Origin: a virus
Lineage: Duplodnaviria; Heunggongvirae; Uroviricota; Caudoviricetes
Reading direction: 5' to 3' (one strand)
DNA: 7,441 nt
Virus record (IMG/VR): IMGVR_UViG_2531839579_000023
Part shown: positions 1-7,441 of the stretch, piece by piece
How positions within the stretch are numbered: the stretch's first letter is position 1
Layout of the letters: each line of letters opens with the position of its first letter
The notes under the pieces: generated by a model
Databases searched by the model: none
Seen by the model: the letters and a program-made list of their open reading frames with translations, nothing else
Told to the model about the DNA's origin: nothing
Position numbers and translations under genes: made by a program

Positions 1-219
1 AATTCATAGATATTTTTTACCATCCTATGGATTTTTGGGCGTTTTCTAAGTTTTTTCAGATGGTTGTATTTTTTCTAAAAACTCCTGATCTCGATTTTGC
101 TGTTTGTCTGAGACCTTTTTATGTCCCATATATGCCCCAAGGTGCCCCATGTAAATCCAATTCAACTCAAAGCATCCCTGTTCAATATTTTTACAAGGGG
201 CTTGCATATCAGTGTTTTT

Positions 220-786
220 TTATTGCGTAACGTCAAACGCTCGGATTGAGCGTAAATCATCAAGATTATTCAGCTCTTCCTTCATCTCCCGCTGACGACG
301 ATAAATCTCGTCATTGCGATCGGCCTGTGCCCGTGCCATTACTGCCGCAAGTTCTTCCAGTTCCTGCATCGTCAGGAGGATTGGCGTATTCTCTCCATCT
401 CCCCAAACAATTGTTTCTCTGCCAGCTCCTGATTTCGCCGCCATTACCACTGGTAAGAGGCGGGACAGCGAAACCGGACCAGCATTCCATTTGTGACCTT
501 TCCATTCCAGCATGAACGACATGGACTCCTGTTCCTGACGCCATACTTCGATCTCACACACTTTAGCCTCTTTTTCTGCGGCAATAAGTTCAGGCGTAAC
601 GGTAAACCGGGCTATTCCGCCCCACTTCCCGCTTTGCAGTTCCTGCCAGACCTGTTTACCCATTTCCGCAACATCATTCTCAACAGCGGTATAAGGTAGA
701 TGTACCTCCTGCCCCTCCAAAAGCACTTCACAATATACAGCACCATCCTCCAGAAACATGGCATTTCTTATATTTTTTATCTGCAT
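220..786 (-). CDS. Putative tail fibre assembly / chaperone protein (Tfa-position ORF, 188 aa)
   Basis: Uninterrupted 188-codon ORF (MQIKNIRNAMFLEDG...RSIRAFDVTQ). Its ATG (784-786) lies 6 nt after the stf-like stop (793-795) on the same strand, the usual fibre/chaperone arrangement. It does not resemble lambda Tfa as I recall it, so the function is inferred from position and size only. Confidence 0.45.
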   Translation of the reverse strand: MQIKNIRNAMFLEDGAVYCEVLLEGQEVHLPYTAVENDVAEMGKQVWQELQSGKWGGIARFTVTPELIAAEKEAKVCEIEVWRQEQESMSFMLEWKGHKWNAGPVSLSRLLPVVMAAKSGAGRETIVWGDGENTPILLTMQELEELAAVMARAQADRNDEIYRRQREMKEELNNLDDLRSIRAFDVTQ

Positions 787-792
787 ACTCTG

Positions 793-2688
793 TCACCCGA
801 CCCGCACAAATAATCCTATATACGCTTCCTTTCCGTTGGTGGTATAAAGACCATCTCCCCCCAGAGACTGATACACTCCGGGAAATGCCGATGTATTCGT
901 TCTGCCAATGACAAACGTTGCCTCCCCTTTCATTGTGCCTGCTCCTGTCACGCCTCCCACTACTATTTCCACCGGCGCAAGTGCTTTTCCCGGGCATGGT
1001 TGTCCACGACTCAGGCGCATTAAAACTCCACCTTCCGCTACTCCCAAAAAAGCTGCCATAACCACACTGCCGATATCCGGTTTCGGCGAACTGATACTTC
1101 TTAAAAATTCATCCTTTGATAATTTGCTCTGAGCCTCATCCATTACCACTTTGACCGCTTTTGGGGTTGCCGCCAGTGACTCGGAAGTGCTGTTTGTCGC
1201 ACTACTGAGTTGTACTATCCCTTTCTGTGCTGTCGTTGCATTCTGTGCGGTGTATTTCCCGTTAGCCAGGTCATACGCGGCCTTAACTGCTTTTGGCGTT
1301 GCCGCCAGGTCGAGTCTGTTGTCGCACTCTGAGTGTACTATCCCCTTTTTCGTCGTGCTCGCATCCTCAAGCGCCACGGCGATGCAATATCCTCTGCCCG
1401 TTTTGCGCTGTCTCGCGCGCGTTGCTGCGATTCGCCGTACTTTGCTCTGGCTGCGCCGTCGCACTACCAGCGCCTCGTCGCCTTCGTGGATGCCGTCGTG
1501 GCGCTGCCCTTCGCTGCTGACGCCTGTTGGTCGCCTCATCTTTTGAAGCAGACGCCGATGATGCCGATGACGCCGCCGAACTGGCGGACGATGCGGCAGC
1601 CGTTTTTGAGGATTCTGCACGGGTTTCCGACGCTTTCGCGTTCGTTTCGGATGTCTTCGCTGCGGAAGCAGACCTCGCTGCTGCGCTGGCCTGTTCAGTG
1701 GCTTCGCCAGCCTTCGTTGTGGCTGTTGAAGCAGACGATGCGGCACTTTCTGCCGACTTTCCGGCAGCGGTGGCACTGGCTGAGGCCTGCCCGGCACTTG
1801 TTGATGCGGCACTGGCAGATGATGCAGCCGCTGTTTTTGAGCCTGCCGCAGCTGAGGCGCTCTGTCCCGCTGCCGTTTCAGAAGACCTGGCGTTCGTCTC
1901 GGACGTTTTTGCCGCCTTCGCGGAATTTCCTGCCGCCGTTGCCGAGGAAGCGGCACTACTGGCGCTTGATGATGCGTTCGTTTCTGATGATTTCGCTGCC
2001 TCTTTTGAGGCCGCCGCATCCCGGGCTGAGGTGGCGCTTCTGACGCTTCGTGGTCGCGGGGATGCAGAAGTGGCTGCGATTTTGTGACGCTGCGCATTCG
2101 TTTCTGACGTTTTCGCCGCACGGCACTGGTAGCGCCGCGCTTTTTGAGGACTCTGCAGCGCAGCACTTTTGATGCTTCAGGCTTTGTTGATGCCGTTCCG
2201 CGCTGGAAGAGCCTGAGCCGACGCGCGGCCTGCCGGCTGAGTGCTGGCGCCGGCTGAGCCTGAGCATCAGTCGCATGGGTTGCCGCCTCACGGCGATGTG
2301 CGGCATCCTGGCTGACTTCTTGCGGCTGCCGTGTTCTGTGCCACCCGGACGCGTTACGCGCCACTCTTCCACCATCAGTCAAACGGCGCAGTGCCTCGGA
2401 CGGCATCATCCTCCGTCATGGCACCGAGAAAATCATTCAGCGTACCGGTCGGATCTTCATACACGTGATGGTCCCGGCATGTGACGGCGGGAACCTCCAC
2501 CAACAGAATAACGCTGTACTGCCGTACTCAACGTCCATGCTGTAACGCCCGGCTTCATCCGGATTTTCTGAGGCCAGCGTGTTCACCACCACCGTGGTGC
2601 TGTTACGTTTTGCTTTCAGCTGGATTGTGCAGTTCTGTACCGGTTTTCCTGTGCCGTCTTTCAGTACACCTGAAATCTTTACTGCCAT
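793..2688 (-). pseudogene. stf: Side tail fibre protein Stf-like, frame-disrupted as given
   Basis: N-terminus from ATG 2686-2688 reads MAVKISGVLKDGTGKPVQNCTIQLKA...NPDEAGRYSMDVEYG, near-identical to recalled lambda Stf (orf-401); the ORF track starts 2 codons earlier at a GTG (2694). My manual translation of 1527-2087 in a third minus frame gives the lambda-like Ala/Ser/Thr-rich shaft (...ATSARDAAASKEAAKSSETNASSS...AAKTSETNARSSETAA...). The C-terminal part is in the frame of the 793-2409 ORF (...IAVALEDASTTKKGIV...LAATPKAVK...). The N-terminal frame hits a stop at 2437-2439 and the lambda-like text moves between frames, so no single frame encodes the protein. Confidence 0.8.
1153..1345 (-). 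repeat. Tandem ~132-bp direct repeat inside stf encoding a ~44-aa tail-fibre repeat motif
   Basis: Two adjacent copies: plus-strand core 1174-1215 and 1306-1338, flanked by the shared cttttggNgttgccgccag. Copy 1 encodes TAQKGIVQLSSATNSTSESLAATPKAVK; copy 2 is a shortened version. The motif matches the tail-fibre repeat known from lambda Stf and Rac StfR-type fibres. Confidence 0.7.
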
Positions 2689-2699
2689 ATTCACCCCAC

Positions 2700-2727: not shown

Positions 2728-2753
2728 TCATAACACTGTGTTACCTGGCTAAT

Positions 2754-3343
2754 CAGAATTTATAACCGACACCCACGATGAAACCGTCAGTGCGCCAGTC
2801 ACCACTGCCGGAGCCTTCATAAGCAATATCAATGGCCACGGATTCGGTCGGGTTAAACTGCACGCCAGCCCCCCACGCCAGAGACGTGTTGCTGTGGCGA
2901 CCGTCATCACTTCCGGTCAGCACATCGTGCTTTTCCCCTTGTTGTCAGTTACGCGAGATAATCCCCGGAGAAAGTCGACACACGGCTGTAAGCCACACCC
3001 GCCATCGCATACGCGCTGAACCATTCATTCACGCGCACAGACGGCCCGCCATCACGCTGAACCAGCGGTTACGCACGGAATCTCATGCCAGCGGGTATCG
3101 CTGTATGCGTTTTTTGCTCATCTCAGCTTGGCATAACTGAAGACGTAATCAGCCCCAGCGGTCCGTAAACTCATAACGGTATTTCACGTTAATCCCGTTC
3201 AGATTATCGCTGCCGGGAGCGTTCGTACGGGCATGAAGATACCCTGCGCTCAGTGTGGCCTGCTGCTCAGACGCCCATGCAGGCGCACCGGATACGGCCA
3301 GACAGATGGCTGCGGACAAAATGGCTGCACAAACTTTACGCAT
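2754..3343 (-). pseudogene. lom: Lom outer-membrane protein (Ail/Lom family), frame-disrupted as given
   Basis: Start ORF 3149-3343 reads MRKVCAAILSAAICLAVSGAPAWASEQQATLSAGYLHARTNAPGSDNLNGINVKYRYEFTD, near-identical to recalled lambda Lom with a cleavable signal peptide. Manual translation of the 3' end gives ...HDVLTGSDDGRHSNTSLAWGAGVQFNPTESVAIDIAYEGSGSGDWRTDGFIVGVGYKF, stop at 2754-2756. Between about 2935 and 3170 the Lom text continues only by switching frame several times. SD gagagg lies 6 nt upstream of the ATG. Confidence 0.85.
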
Positions 3344-3410: not shown

Positions 3411-4850
3411 TCAGCTGATACTGATGCCTGCGGTGGCTTTCTTCATCACCACAACCAGCAAATCGCTGATACTTGCTGTGGGATACCAGTCATTTACCAG
3501 CCATGATGACACCGAAAACTCCAGCGTCATGTGGCCGCGACCAGCTGGCATATCAATAACACCACTGTAAATCAGCGTATTATCCAGCGCGGTACGGTTA
3601 TAAATTTCAGCACCGTTTTTCCGTACTATCAGGCGGCATGACGAATAAATATCGTTATTCTCCCTCTCATGTTTAGCGCCGCTGAATGCCACCGCCGGAA
3701 TAACAATCTGCCGGTCAAACGGCTGATCGTCATAAACCCTGACGGTGATGGTCCCTGATGGCCACCGTTCCGGTGCACGGGAGTCCCGGGGGAAAGCTTT
3801 GCCCACTGTTTTAACGAGATCGCCTTCAATCTGGTTGGCGGACAGTTTTCCCAGAACCCGACAGTTCTCGTTAATCGTGACGTTGTTGAGCGTCCCGGAG
3901 TTCGCATTCACGTTACCGCTGATATCGGCATTTTTCGCCGTCAGCCGCCCGTCCGGTGTCAGGGAAAATGCCGGAGGATTACCGCCGCTGGTAATGGTCG
4001 GAGCCGTCAGGCGTTTCAGGAACACGTCGTTCATGAATATCTGATCGCCCTGACCAACAAACATTGGTCTTGTGTTGCCATTAGACGGATCAATAAACGC
4101 GATACGGTTAGCGGCAACCAGGAACTGGCTCAGCTTGCCTTCTTCCGTGTCCTCCATGCTGAGGCCAATACCCGCGACATAATGTTTGCCGTCTTTGGTC
4201 TGCTCAATTTTGACAGCCCACATGGCATTCCACTTATCGTTGGCGTCCTTCCACTCTTTCGAAAACTCCTCCAGTCTGCTGGCGTTATCCTCCGTCAGCT
4301 CGACTTTTTCCAGCAGCTCCTTGCCGAGATGGGATTCGGTTATCTTGCCTTTGAAAAAATCCAGGTAACCTTCCGCATCATCGCTCGCCCGACCGACGGC
4401 CTCCACGAATGCCGATTTGCCAACGGTGTTCACACTGCGGATATAAAAGTAATAATCATGGCCCGGTTTGATATTGATACTGGCAGCTATCCAGTACAGC
4501 GCCGAGCCAAGATAGCGGGCTGCGGTTTCAACCTGCCTGATATCCGCAATCCGCTTTTCCGAGAACCAGAACTCAAACTGTACCGTCGGATCATAAACCG
4601 CAAGATGCGGCGTGGCGGTTATCTGAAAATACCCCGGTGTCAGCTCAATCTGCGACGGCGCTGCCGGTGCGGCAATCCGGAACGATACCGATGCCGGATC
4701 GCCCTGCTGCCCCCACGCATTTACTGCCCGGACTGTCAGCCTGTAGTTCCCCAGCGCCAGTTGTGTGAAGCGGTATGTGGTTTCCGCCGTCCGGGCTGTG
4801 CTGACCAGCCGCTCACTGCCGTCATCCGCTGCCACGGTCAGGCGAAGCAT
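3411..4850 (-). CDS. J: Tail-tip host-specificity protein J, C-terminal 479 codons (uninterrupted portion)
   Basis: ORF reads ...[61 protein letters not shown]...[33 protein letters not shown]..., near-identical to recalled lambda J over roughly 330 aa, then a diverged last ~150 aa. The listed Met is internal; this is the 3' part of a longer gene whose upstream part is frame-broken. Confidence 0.9.
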
Positions 4851-6727
4851 GAACTCACGCCCTTCACCACCTTCGGCGTTCCCAGCGGCCAGACCTGATA
4901 CTCCCCGCTGTCTGCGGTGACTTCGCGGTCAGTGCTGCACGCTGGCGGCGTGACACCATTACCGTGCCGCTCTGGTCGCCGTCAAAGTGCGCCCCGTTAT
5001 CCACGATGGCTCTTTTTCCGGTACATGCTGCACGGCGGTGATGGCATACGTGCCGTCTCGTTCTCACGGATACTCACGCAGCGGAACAGGCGCTGGCGCA
5101 CGTCGGCAGCTTCAGCCCCCAACGCTGTATCGCAACGCCGTCAGGAACACGGCTCACTTTACCTTCACGCCGTCGGTGACGGACTGACCTCCACGCTGAC
5201 CGGATCCCTCCGTCAACCAGGCTTATCAGCGTGGTCCGGAGATGGCAGCGTGATTTCACGGTCGAGCGTCAGCGTCCGGGTCTGGCTGTTACCGCCAGCA
5301 CGCGCCCCGGTGCGATACCGCATAGTCATCATCGCAGATTTCAATGACATCCCCGGTACATGGCGAAGCCCTTCGCACCCACGCTGAAGTCCACGGTCTG
5401 CGTTTCCAGCAGTTCGTTTTAATCAGCCACAGCCCGGCGCGGTGGCCTGCCCCCGGCTGGTACAGCCAAAGCATCCATCTTCGTGACGTTACGACCGTAA
5501 CGGGCAATGGCCTGCGTTCTCACAAGCTCTGTCGCCGTCTCCCAGCCGTTATCGGGTCAATCCAGTTCACCTCAACGGCATTATGGCGGTCTTCAGGGCG
5601 CTGAACTGTAGCGGAACGGCGCCCATCATCCGGCATCACCACATTACTGCGGTTATAGGCCACACCTTATCGAGGTCGGTCCTGCACGAACGTCAGCTCT
5701 GCCCGTTCCATACCGGCATACAGCGCATCGCGAGCAGAAATCACTGAGCACATCCCACGCTTCGCTGGTGGTCAGAGCATTACAGGTGATGCGCGGCTCC
5801 GTGCCGCCAAACCGTCCGGCACGACTGGTCGCAGTACTGGCCGATAATACAGCGCCCATTTTCCACATCGCCGCACCAAGACGTTTCCCCATGCCGTAGC
5901 GGGATGGGTCAGCATATCCCACAGACACCAGGCCATGTTTTGCTGTATGCTGGCTTAAACGTTCCGTCCCAGATACCGCTGTATTGCCGGTCTGCGGGTT
6001 ATAGTTCGACGGCACCTGCAGAATACGCCCGCGCAGATGATAATTACGGCTCACCTGCTGGCTGCCGAACTGCTCCGATCCACCTGACGCCGACCAGTGC
6101 CGTGTTCGGGTAGCACTGTTTCACATCGATATTTCGGTGTATGACGACCAGAGCGTTTTGTTCTGCAGCTGGTCTGTGGTGCTGTCCGGCGTCATCTGCG
6201 CATCCGGATATTAAACGGGCGCGGCGGCAGGTTATCCACCACCACCGAGGCCAGATACTGGAGTGGTTTTGCCCTTAATGGTGATGTCTTTTTCCGTCAC
6301 CCAGCCACCTTACGTGTATCTGAACCAGCAGGCGACTTCCGACGGATTCCGTCCCCCTTTGAGGTGGTTTCCACCAGTGCCTGCACACCGAAGGTAAAGC
6401 GCAGACGGTCGATGTTTGCCGACGTGATGGTCCGGGTATCGGCGTGTCTATTTCACTTCCGTACCCAGACCGTCTCGGACCGAGATTCAAATCCCTCCGG
6501 CGGTGTCTGTCCTGCTCACCTGCCCGGAACACCACCGTGACACCGAGATGTTGTATTCCCCTCACTGTCCAGCACCGGGTACTGTTCAGCAGCACGCTTT
6601 TTAATCCATCCACCGGACCTTCAACCGGCCCTTCGCTGATGGCATCGATCACACTCAGCAACTGCGTGGACTTCAGGTTGTCCTTCGCTTCGCGCGGGGT
6701 ATGCCCCTTACTGCTGCCTTTACCCAT
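4851..6727 (-). pseudogene. J: Tail-tip host-specificity protein J, N-terminal ~two-thirds, multiply frame-disrupted as given
   Basis: ATG at 6725-6727 with SD ggag 8 nt upstream; first 50 aa MGKGSSKGHTPREAKDNLKSTQLLSVIDAISEGPVEGPVDGLKSVLLNST match lambda J. Lambda-J-like text then continues in pieces on different frames (6275-6727, 5653-6054 QVSRNYHLRGRILQVPSNYNPQT..., 5289-5507 ...HRAGLWLIKT...GDVIEICDDDYA, 5074-5259 ...TALISLVDG...KVSRVPDGVA, 4864-5067 ...AIVDNGAHFDGDQSGTV), with stops between them. Confidence 0.8.
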
Positions 6728-6787: not shown

Positions 6788-7441
6788 TCAGCGACCAATC
6801 ACCACAACCTGACCACCATCCCCTTCGTCTGCCGTGCTGATCTCCTGAGAAACCACACGTGACCCCACGCGCATTTCACCGTACAGAACAGGCAGAACAT
6901 TGCCCTGGGCAACCATGTTATCCAGTGAGGAGAAATAGGTGTTCTGTTTGCCGTTATCCGTTGTCTGTGTACGGGGAGTTCTGGCTTTCGGTGCCAGCAT
7001 CTGCGCCACACCACCGAGCACCATACTGGCACCGAGAGAAAACAGGATGCCGGTCATACCACCGGCCCCAATGGCTGCCCCCCATGCTGCAAGGGTGGCT
7101 CCGGCGGTAAAGAATGATCCGGCAATGGCGGCAGCCCCCAGGACAATCTGGAATACGCCACCTGACTTGGCCCCGGCGACTCTGGGAACAATATGAATCA
7201 CAGCGCCATCAGGCAGAGTCTCATGTAACTGCGCCGTTAACCCGGACGTGCTGACGTCCCGCCCGGCAATCCGTACCTGATACCAGCCGTCGCTCAGTTT
7301 CTGACGAAACACCGGGAGCTGTGTGGCCAGTGCGCGGATGGCTTCAGCCCCCGTTTTCACACGAAGGTCGATGCGGCGGCCAAATCGTTGCAAATCCCCG
7401 TAAAGGCAGATGCGCGCCATGCCCGGTGACGCCAGAGGGAG
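6788..7441 (-). CDS. I: Tail assembly protein I (gpI), 5' end beyond window
   Basis: ORF reads MARICLYGDLQRFGRRIDLRVKTGAEAIRALATQLP...GEMRVGSRVVSQEISTADEGDGGQVVVIGR, near-identical to recalled lambda gpI (223 aa). Lambda gpI has about 13 more N-terminal residues, so the true start is probably just past position 7441. Stop at 6788-6790. Confidence 0.9.
   Translation of the reverse strand, partial: LPLASPGMARICLYGDLQRFGRRIDLRVKTGAEAIRALATQLPVFRQKLSDGWYQVRIAGRDVSTSGLTAQLHETLPDGAVIHIVPRVAGAKSGGVFQIVLGAAAIAGSFFTAGATLAAWGAAIGAGGMTGILFSLGASMVLGGVAQMLAPKARTPRTQTTDNGKQNTYFSSLDNMVAQGNVLPVLYGEMRVGSRVVSQEISTADEGDGGQVVVIGR

Follow-up and report, generated by a model that had tools for sequence, protein, structure and literature searches.

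A lambda-like side tail fibre gene with a non-lambda tip and a predicted DUF4376-family chaperone downstream

Among phage tail fibre systems, DUF4376 proteins have been found to act as fibre chaperones, or to be needed for fibre function, in the case of gp27 of Alteromonas phage V22 (PMC7289586, PMC10579305). A second case is the Campylobacter prophage CJIE1, where a DUF4376 protein with a fibre-chaperone or fibre-function role is encoded downstream of the H-fibre (PMC7882524). In both V22 (gp26/gp27) and A5 (gp8/gp9), a tail fibre is combined with a DUF4376 chaperone (Gonzalez-Serrano et al. 2020, 2023; PMC7289586, PMC10579305), and three N-terminal strands of the Alteromonas chaperones pair with the fibre head (PMC10579305). 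According to the reports, these strands and the fibre head co-evolve, and the fibre-helper pair is exchanged between unrelated phage types. DUF4376 chaperones are similar to the intramolecular chaperone domains (Peptidase_S74) at the C-terminus of K1F endosialidase and T5 pb1, with a helical core and beta-hairpin "tentacles" that trimerise at the fibre end (PMC10579305). The helpers of the lambda Stf-Tfa and Mu S-U systems belong to Caudo_TAP (PF02413), whose members combine a variable N-terminal fibre-binding part with a conserved C-terminal part, according to the passage of PMC7882524 that cites North et al. 2019.

Here, we describe a fibre-helper pair at one end of a 7,441-nucleotide stretch of Caudoviricetes DNA (IMG/VR record IMGVR_UViG_2531839579_000023), hereafter called the window. 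In its layout the pair follows lambda Stf-Tfa and Mu S-U, whose helpers, also about 190 aa long, come right after the fibre gene. The same Stf N-terminal domain, shaft and fibre repeat precede it, and the modular logic of a variable N-terminal and a conserved C-terminal helper part is shared too; unlike in these systems, the helper belongs to a different family and the tip lacks similarity to lambda orf314. The likeness to V22 and A5 extends to a helper directly 3' of the fibre gene (195 aa there, 188 aa here), to a DUF4376 domain in its C-terminal two-thirds, and to a predicted architecture in which three N-terminal strands precede a helical body containing beta-hairpins. However, no sequence similarity is detectable beyond the Pfam domain, host and phage backbone differ, and the Alteromonas tip is a knob domain, whereas the window tip is an unrelated "PGSRL…GLFVRI" domain. 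The same two-gene module as in the window occurs in P-EibA (orf-401-like/ORF-191A), phiP27 (L56/L57), Rac-SA53 (tail3/tail4) and SerU-LTIIb (stf2), where an Stf-type fibre with PF08400 at its N-terminus and …LF[VQ]RI[AV] at the end of its tip is followed by a 187-191-aa DUF4376 protein, but the helpers of these modules are only 32-63% identical to that of the window and the tips 27-30% or less. We consider it highly probable that the lambda tip and Tfa have been replaced, at the distal end of the side tail fibre operon, by another matched pair, consisting of a 113-aa tip and a DUF4376 chaperone.

Table 1. Features of the window (positions are counted from its first letter).
Feature	Position	Strand	Basis or remark
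I	6788-7420	minus	
J	about 3411-6727	minus	frameshifted
lom	2753-3343	minus	broken
stf	793-2694	minus	several frame changes
Lambda-like part of stf: PF08400 N-terminal attachment domain and Ala/Ser/Thr-rich shaft	1136-2694	minus	tblastn with lambda orf401
Two tandem Phage_fiber_2 repeats (…KGIVQLSSATNSTSESLAATPKAVK…), lambda-like shaft end	1135-1419	minus	Pfam PF03406, E=9e-29, two stretches
Conserved ATPKAVKVVMDE motif, proposed upstream recombination joint	1135-1170	minus	within the Phage_fiber_2 stretch
Stf C-terminal tip domain, non-lambda, 113 aa	796-1134	minus	presumed receptor-binding domain
stf stop codon TGA	793-795	minus	read from sequence
Spacer between stf stop and helper ATG, 6 nt	787-792	minus	read from sequence
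Helper start ATG	784-786	minus	read from sequence
Helper ORF, 188 aa	220-786	minus	
Helper N-terminal part, aa 1-62	601-786	minus	AF2: strands 3-11, 17-23, 30-34; helix 41-52
Helper C-terminal part, aa 63-188 (DUF4376 body)	223-600	minus	AF2: H65-88, E91-95/98-102, H104-118, E125-129/135-139, H140-173
Prophage right end, 3' of helper	1-219	.	ETEC and A8 locus annotation
DinI-like gene remnant	about 60-149	plus	within prophage right end

The initial annotation had described the N-terminus and shaft of Stf as lambda-like, and this description holds. By tblastn, lambda orf401 matches the window in frames -2, -1, -3 and -2; residues 1-79 of Stf are 80% identical to orf401, and the shaft is recovered in shifted frames. 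In the intact Stf orthologue of enterotoxigenic E. coli (ETEC), PF08400 scores 240 bits and identity to orf401 reaches 76% over 381 aa; all partner fibres share this Stf-type N-terminal domain. Lambda homology then stops at window position 1136 at the DNA level (blastn), between …ATPKAVKVVMDE and AQSK…, and the alignment with orf401 stops at its residue 390, which corresponds to position 1135 (tblastn). Most E. coli genomes align to the window only from about position 1150 upward. Within the fibre-repeat region, the direct repeats D5 and D6 show spacings of 123 and 132 nt. Neither lambda orf314, which encodes the C-terminal part of Stf, nor lambda Tfa gave a tblastn match in the window; the best match of tip and helper to the 10-kb lambda late region had an E-value of only 0.16, and blastp of the tip against orf314 gave E-values of 5 or more. 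Judged by its N-terminus, shaft and fibre repeat, the window fibre is thus a lambda-type Stf, but one without the lambda orf314 region. Since the Stf C-terminus does not align well to lambda Stf, the reading of a swapped tip survives. The initial annotation was therefore right about the non-lambda character of the C-terminus, but not about its length of ~170 aa: that figure corresponds to the undamaged in-frame stretch 793-1306, whose first ~58 aa are lambda-like Phage_fiber_2 repeats.

The tip displays the features of a ~90-aa family of the form "PGSRL…PGxYxALSG…GLFVRI", in which a conserved framework (P-x-x-G-x-hydrophobic-AA[YF], RG, PG[SK]xL, [FL]PGxYxxL, GLFVR) is combined with variable segments. 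The window tip aligns over its full length with 50 other non-redundant tips and retains every invariant residue (G, A, G, L, G, L, F and R), while its identity to other members is only 24-39%. It matches positions 474-567 of the 568 positions of PHROG 2636, that is, the C-terminus of this profile, and a search with the tip-family profile retrieves the window's own cluster (E=6e-24). By its framework and its position ahead of a DUF4376 gene, we therefore assign the window tip to this widespread but unnamed family. Pfam and NCBIfam have no model for it, and neither the tip profile nor the helper profile matched any PDB sequence. Searched as a single sequence, a mode that depends on a word prefilter, the tip returned its own three clusters alone, and the profile search returned short fragment proteins only and gives no measure of family size. 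Tip fragments carry the annotation "shikimate transporter".

The 188-aa ORF downstream matches Pfam PF14301 (DUF4376) with 50.8 bits (gathering cut-off 25, E=2.6e-13), in an alignment that pairs its residues 71-175 with positions 2-97 of the 106-position profile. This fibre-chaperone-linked family is its sole Pfam match, and no non-chaperone family was hit. Because the ORF also matches PHROG 1141 (E=9e-75) and has homologues in 1,494 clusters at 90%, it is a real gene and not a chance ORF. The cluster to which it belongs is listed by NCBI as "phage tail fiber assembly protein"; ETEC genomes encode it with 100% identity, and it is indexed in 226 blocks of a public assembly collection. That it does not resemble lambda Tfa had been noted in the initial annotation, and the profile comparisons agree: Caudo_TAP (PF02413) gave no match to the helper at an E-value of 1 or below, against 147.6 bits for lambda Tfa itself, and the hhalign probability for the Caudo_TAP/Tfa family is 0.4%. 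These comparisons place the helper outside the lambda Tfa family. We predict instead that it is a DUF4376-family tail-fibre chaperone, a function transferred from distant DUF4376 proteins that have only the domain in common with it.

The single-chain AF2 model of the helper (pLDDT 90.7) contains three N-terminal strands and then a helical body with hairpins, the elements described for V22 gp27 and A5 gp9 (a comparison by description, without superposition). Residues 63-188 are conserved across the family and are predicted to be the oligomerisation core, and residues 1-62 the fibre-binding and specificity part. By inference from the characterised DUF4376 chaperones, the conserved C-terminal body would oligomerise at the nascent fibre end, and the three N-terminal strands would pair with the beta-sheet of the tip, templating trimerisation from the C-terminus. 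The helper may then remain transiently as a cap.

We then consider how regularly tip and helper occur together. Of 80 viral loci with a DUF4376 homologue, 71 have a fibre with the same tip-family ending directly upstream of it, the gap measuring -1 to 23 nt, which, along with the DUF4376 match, supports the earlier proposal of a swapped tip with its own helper. The pairing recurs in P-EibA, phiP27, Rac-SA53, E. coli A8 and also Av-05, a virulent phage; six annotated phages or prophages show the DUF4376 gene immediately downstream of the fibre gene and on its strand. In phiP27, Rac-SA53 and A8 (the latter by annotation), helpers of both types stand at equivalent positions, Caudo_TAP behind fibre 1 and DUF4376 behind fibre 2. 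The order J-lom-stf-helper of the window is also that of prophage P-EibA. In the window itself, stf and the helper gene have a common reading frame across the spacer, which suggests translational coupling; positions 1-1400 contain no promoter-like site, and searches for Rfam families and tRNAs found none.

The location of the helper, as the last intact gene before the prophage end, beside the DinI-like remnant and close to lom-, bor- and dinI-like genes, would also suit a "moron" or lysogenic-conversion gene (exclusion or defence, for example) unrelated to fibre assembly. We regard this as very improbable, given that the helper starts just past the stf stop codon in the same frame, that it has no PADLOC match, and that the pairing is also internal in phiP27-type tail modules and is present in Av-05, a virulent member of the Vequintavirinae, with overlapping stop and start codons. 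Moreover, DUF4376 proteins have been tied to fibre function by experiment. A defence or moron function was rejected on the PADLOC result, the lack of a promoter-like site and the pairing in a virulent phage.

A second alternative is that the 188-aa protein is a structural distal subunit, an adhesin remaining at the end of the fibre and itself touching the receptor, like gp38 of T2-type phages. PHROG and several phage records name its homologues "tail fiber protein", and TfaMu and the Alteromonas chaperones are reported to stay on the mature fibre (PMC10579305). The distribution of variability argues the other way: the mean pairwise identity of the tips is 47%, against 73-83% for the helper (75-83% for its C-terminal part), which is the opposite of what a receptor-contacting subunit would show, and where tips fall below 35% identity the C-terminal parts of the helpers are still 73-83% identical. 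The variable segments sit inside the tip. We therefore judge the adhesin role improbable and place specificity in the tip, for which a receptor-binding role is presumed.

We next turn to where the exchanged unit begins and ends. Mantel correlations with the tip are highest for the N-terminal part of the helper (r=0.82-0.84) and drop to 0.42 and then 0.21 in later helper segments. It would be tempting to take the upper value (r=0.84) as evidence of a binding interface, but fibre segments upstream of the tip correlate with it nearly as well (r=0.76-0.79), and this control weakens the argument: physical linkage alone could produce the co-variation. We thus used these data solely for placing the recombination boundary. 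On the DNA level, the homology of other genomes to the window stops near position 650, while positions 1-339 are 92-95% identical in many other genomes. Against the A8 prophage, identity is 96-98% at the prophage end and drops to the random level over the tip, and the prophage right end, which adjoins a truncated ydfJ in relatives, is 96-98% identical between otherwise different prophages at the same site. E. coli UTAK-3 keeps only the last 40 helper codons, beside a different fibre module.

These alignments place the exchange unit between the conserved fibre repeat and the interior of the helper gene: it holds the tip and the N-terminal part of the helper, both of which are lineage-specific, and the C-terminal end is shared with other prophages. 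The C-terminal part of the helper has a second role as the downstream recombination anchor. The initial annotation had assumed that tip and chaperone are usually exchanged together; the pair does travel together, but of the helper only the N-terminal part belongs to the swapped unit. Mechanistically, one crossover would fall in the conserved fibre repeat, at ATPKAVKVVMDE, and the other either within the helper gene's conserved 3' part or within the prophage end that is shared, and the two together would move the tip and the specificity part of the helper as one unit. A Mu G- or e14-type invertible segment was rejected, as there are neither flanking inverted repeats nor an invertase.

The initial annotation had also contrasted an intact tip and helper with a broken upstream stf. 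The first half of this statement is confirmed: both ORFs are intact, and window positions 1-1160 show 100.0% DNA identity to seven complete ETEC genomes, in which stf is an intact 654-aa ORF. One intact ETEC fibre that we examined is annotated as a pseudogene "missing C-terminus". As to the second half, stf does carry three or more frame changes in this record, J and lom carry many, and truncated versions of the same prophage end exist elsewhere (L097, UTAK-3). It is therefore possible that the cassette is a functionless relic in a truly decayed prophage, intact by chance or because it is short; should the frameshifts in stf, lom and J be genuine, the cassette is without function in this record.

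Under closer inspection, the lesions comprise about 112 deletions of 1-4 nt each (one of 7 nt), 151 bases in total, and no insertions. They are confined to four sharply bounded blocks, within which the indel-to-substitution ratio exceeds 1 and between which there are no indels. In stf, the private micro-deletions lie at 1301-1530 and 2031-2525, and those at 1307-1333 damage the upstream Phage_fiber_2 repeat. The deletions are absent from all 16 other copies (ETEC, WCHEC005784, five IMG/VR loci and nine further NCBI assemblies), and window positions 1-1300 are 100% identical to intact ETEC prophages. Because the deletions lack insertions, fall in bounded blocks and are absent elsewhere, a consensus error fits better than natural decay, so that the "broken" upstream stf is probably an assembly (consensus) error and the relic reading, though possible, is the less likely one. 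An explanation of the deletion blocks as multi-copy segments was considered, but the clean block 1531-2030 is likewise widespread among prophages.

The module itself is widespread in E. coli phages, but the window allele is uncommon: it was found in 10 of 5,426 complete E. coli genomes and has no close relative among 50,697 phage records. Elsewhere, this allele sits on an intact Stf of 652-654 aa. Taken together, the window cassette is real but ordinary tail-fibre mosaicism, an uncommon version of a widespread module.

The host range of lambdoid phages, like that of engineered lambda-based delivery particles, is determined by side-tail-fibre tips together with their helpers, and a non-Tfa family, DUF4376, serves a large and poorly annotated set of E. 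coli Stf tips. The gaps exposed here include the pseudogene flag, the "shikimate transporter" names and the missing tip model. For chimeric fibres, the natural joint directly after …ATPKAVKVVMDE, together with the inclusion of the helper N-terminal part in the matched unit, offers a practical recipe; a literature search for the "MDETNR" engineering junction gave no result. It is tempting to speculate, although we hold this only tentatively, that the "PGSRL…GLFVRI" tip and its DUF4376 helper form a distinct receptor-binding system, perhaps the one that most often takes the place of Tfa on the side tail fibres of E. coli. The helper would then be the free-standing equivalent of the self-cleaving intramolecular chaperone domains, a removable cap, and the exchange unit would be deliberately split inside its gene, so that the N-terminal specificity part moves with the tip and the C-terminal part, universal in kind, acts as recombination anchor. 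If this is true, the window allele, whose tip is at most 39% identical to any other examined, would target a receptor so far assigned to no lambdoid fibre.

Lambda similarity ends within the last part of stf. The last window position with lambda homology in blastn is 1136, and in tblastn the match to lambda orf401 ends at residue 390, equivalent to window position 1135, directly after the motif ATPKAVKVVMDE. Neither lambda orf314, the C-terminal part of Stf, nor lambda Tfa had a tblastn match in the window, and searching 10 kb of the lambda late region with the fibre tip and the protein encoded downstream returned nothing (best E=0.16). Since the similarity stops at 1135/1136 and orf314 is unmatched, the non-lambda part of Stf amounts to 113 aa, hereafter the tip. 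The initial annotation had called about 170 aa foreign; the C-terminus is indeed foreign, but that length is the undamaged in-frame stretch of stf (793-1306), which opens with ~58 aa of lambda-like sequence, two Phage_fiber_2 repeats (Pfam E=9e-29) present in stf as a 132-nt direct repeat.

Genes and deletion blocks of the window (nucleotide positions)
Feature	Position	Strand	Basis
Lambda tail gene I	6788-7420	minus	tblastn with lambda proteins
J	about 3411-6727	minus	tblastn with lambda proteins
lom	2753-3343	minus	tblastn with lambda proteins
stf	793-2694	minus	tblastn with lambda proteins
Tip (last 113 aa of Stf)	796-1134	minus	end of lambda similarity
188-aa ORF (helper)	220-786	minus	last of the series I, J, lom, stf, 188-aa ORF
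Deletion block 1	1301-1530		comparison with ETEC copy
Deletion block 2	2031-2525		comparison with ETEC copy
Deletion block 3	2926-3165		comparison with ETEC copy
Deletion block 4	4851-6580		comparison with ETEC copy

The complete E. coli genomes nearest to the window are those of ETEC strains, in which the same prophage end adjoins a truncated ydfJ gene and a DinI-like remnant lies between the 188-aa gene and that end. Seven complete ETEC genomes match window 1-1160 at 100.0% identity, and their stf is intact, a 654-aa ORF carrying the identical tip. No RNA families, tRNAs or invertible-segment repeats were found in the window. At its other end (6788-7441), the gene I protein is 99% identical to lambda I. 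From the ETEC prophage that is closest elsewhere, this stretch differs by 78 substitutions and in-frame indels, and a mosaic joint lies near 7000. Long plus-strand ORFs lie antisense to the Ala/Ser/Thr-rich stf shaft at 1151-2087 (the one at 1527-2087, for instance, is 186 aa long and rich in Ala, Asp and Phe); like lambda orf206b, they are by-products of composition and repeats and not genes.

Tip and helper had been described as intact, unlike the upstream part of stf. Their integrity holds, and window 1-1300 is identical to the ETEC copy. Relative to this copy, about 112 small deletions (1-4 nt each, one of 7 nt) have removed 151 bases from the window, and no base has been gained; the losses fall into four sharply bounded blocks with no indels between them, are not biased towards homopolymers, and account for all frameshifts in stf, lom and J. 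Strain WCHEC005784, an independent comparator with a more similar shaft, reveals the same losses in the first two blocks (20 and 43 bases), and none of the deletions occurs in 16 other copies, including five from IMG/VR and ten NCBI assemblies. Deletion-only, block-wise, private and commoner than substitutions, these changes do not look like natural pseudogene decay, and, judging from the sequence comparisons, we consider consensus errors of the source assembly their probable origin. Whatever the cause, copies of this prophage normally have an intact Stf, 652-654 aa long. Between the first two blocks, shaft positions 1531-2030 are 99.6% identical to stf of unrelated E. coli strains such as WCHEC005784 and differ from the ETEC copy by 14 substitutions; the shaft itself is mosaic relative to the ETEC prophage with the identical tip cassette.

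The 188-aa protein had been judged unlike lambda Tfa and taken for the cognate chaperone of a swapped receptor-binding tip, a reading that proved essentially right, with a helper from a different family. Its sole Pfam match is DUF4376 (PF14301; residues 71-175), which scores 50.8 bits where the gathering threshold is 25, and PHROG 1141 ('tail fiber protein') aligns with it end to end (E=9e-75). Caudo_TAP, the family of lambda Tfa, is not matched; conversely, lambda Tfa and the first helpers of phage phiP27 and prophage Rac-SA53 match Caudo_TAP and not DUF4376, and profile-profile comparison of the two families gave a probability of only 0.4%. Homologues form 1,494 clusters at 90%, nearly all from Escherichia, and NCBI names the helper's own cluster 'phage tail fiber assembly protein'. 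By its sequence, then, the helper is assigned to the DUF4376 chaperone family and not to the Tfa family. A fibre-chaperone role of DUF4376 proteins is supported experimentally: gp27 of Alteromonas phage V22, whose gene directly follows that of the fibre, is indispensable for producing active fibres (PMC7289586), its homologue in phage A5 binds the fibre, with a proposed role as transient cap (PMC10579305), and the H-fibre of the Campylobacter CJIE1 prophage is active only if the downstream DUF4376 gene is co-expressed (PMC7882524). The confident AF2 model of the helper (pLDDT 90.7) comprises three N-terminal β-strands and a helix (residues 3-52), followed by helix, hairpin, helix, hairpin and long helix (residues 65-173). 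Compared by description, these elements are those of the Alteromonas chaperones, in which the three strands at the N-terminus pair with the head of the fibre (PMC10579305).

As a single query, the tip retrieved three near-identical fragment clusters and nothing more, and neither Pfam nor NCBIfam has a model for it. Among 80 viral loci encoding a helper homologue, however, the upstream ORF in 71 is a fibre ending in a ~90-aa template, -1 to 23 nt before the helper start. The template runs P-x-x-G-x-hydrophobic-AA[YF], RG, PGSRL, a variable stretch, [FL]PGxYxALSG, a second variable stretch and finally GLF[VI]R, followed by two more residues. The window tip (…PDIGSVVMAAF…SRGQPCPGKALAPV…FPGVYQSLGG…IGLFVRVG) aligns to it over the whole length with the invariant positions kept, and the PHROG 2636 C-terminus also matches it. 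The tip belongs to a large unannotated family without a solved structure, in which it is divergent: its identity to the other tips of the set never exceeds 39%. In RefSeq, the intact 654-aa Stf ORF of ETEC NZ_LR883006 (L001 6793-8757, equivalent to window 793-2694) carries a pseudogene flag ('incomplete; missing C-terminus'), with its end set at L001 7108, likely because the reference model leaves out this tip family. Tip-domain fragments P0124, P0134, P0138 and P0145 are named 'shikimate transporter, partial' in NCBI records, probably a misannotation propagated from the neighbouring MFS transporter gene ydfJ.

The pair sits on lambda-type backbones in the window, the ETEC strains and P-EibA (J-lom-orf401-like-ORF191), and also on phiP27- and Rac-SA53-type tail modules; all four partner fibres scanned (ETEC, A8, P-EibA and phiP27) carry the Stf N-terminal domain PF08400. 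In phiP27 (L004 1456-5064) and Rac-SA53 (L003 1-5064), two fibre-helper pairs follow each other, with a Caudo_TAP helper in the leading pair and a DUF4376 helper in the next, an order also annotated in the prophage of E. coli A8 (L086 3220-6651). These equivalent positions are the strongest contextual argument that both helper families share one job. The pair further occurs in the virulent Vequintavirinae phage Av-05, so that the module crosses between temperate and virulent phages; there (L088 2248-4067), the gene for a 416-aa fibre ending …PGSRIG…GTFVALSG…GLFMRIA overlaps, at its start, a DUF4376 gene of 189 aa. That the helper might instead be a moron or defence gene is disfavoured because of its tight coupling to stf, the lack of any PADLOC match and this presence in a virulent phage. 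In a deleted prophage (L097; GCA_026260495.1, equivalent to window 1-1076), all that survives of the module is the final ~75 aa of the tip together with the helper, and these are joined to genes for lysis and to bor.

Across 57-62 non-redundant loci, mean pairwise identity is 47% for the tips and, for the helper, 73% (residues 1-62), 83% (63-124) and 75% (remainder). An adhesin role for the helper is accordingly disfavoured, since within the pair conservation lies with the helper and variability with the tip. Tip identity correlates with that of the helper's N-terminal part (Mantel r=0.82-0.84), and the correlation falls to 0.42 and then 0.21 farther along the helper; fibre segments directly upstream of the tip, taken as control, reach 0.76-0.79. 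This is no proof of a binding interface, since linkage alone suffices, but the drop places the usual downstream boundary of the exchanged block inside the helper gene. At the DNA level, the match between most E. coli genomes and the window covers only positions above about 1150, in the shaft; others match 1-339 at 92-95% or 1-650 at 82-87% identity, and only 10 of 5,426 genomes carry 650-1150. Compared with the A8 prophage, identity starts at 96-98% at the prophage end, drops to 66-86% over the C-terminal part of the helper and is random across the tip. At the same ydfJ prophage site, E. coli UTAK-3 (L087 3219-3338) keeps only the last 40 helper codons, directly adjoining a fibre module of the Tfa type; this is a recombination scar inside the helper gene. 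Together, the DNA comparisons and the correlation drop indicate a lineage-specific block at roughly 650-1135, with the conserved fibre repeat at one border and, at the opposite border, the helper's conserved 3' part together with the prophage end. The allele is uncommon; its kind is already known.

The two genes lie 6 nt apart in the same frame, and no promoter-like site was found in window 1-1400. Beyond the family membership, tight coupling, conserved synteny and modular conservation established here, characterised DUF4376 chaperones suggest how the pair might work. The C-terminal body of the helper would oligomerise at the fibre end, its N-terminal strands would dock on the β-sheet of the tip and nucleate trimerisation from the C-terminus, and the helper may stay bound for some time as a cap, with the variable tip segments (about residues 59-86 and 93-104 of 113) contacting the presumed receptor.
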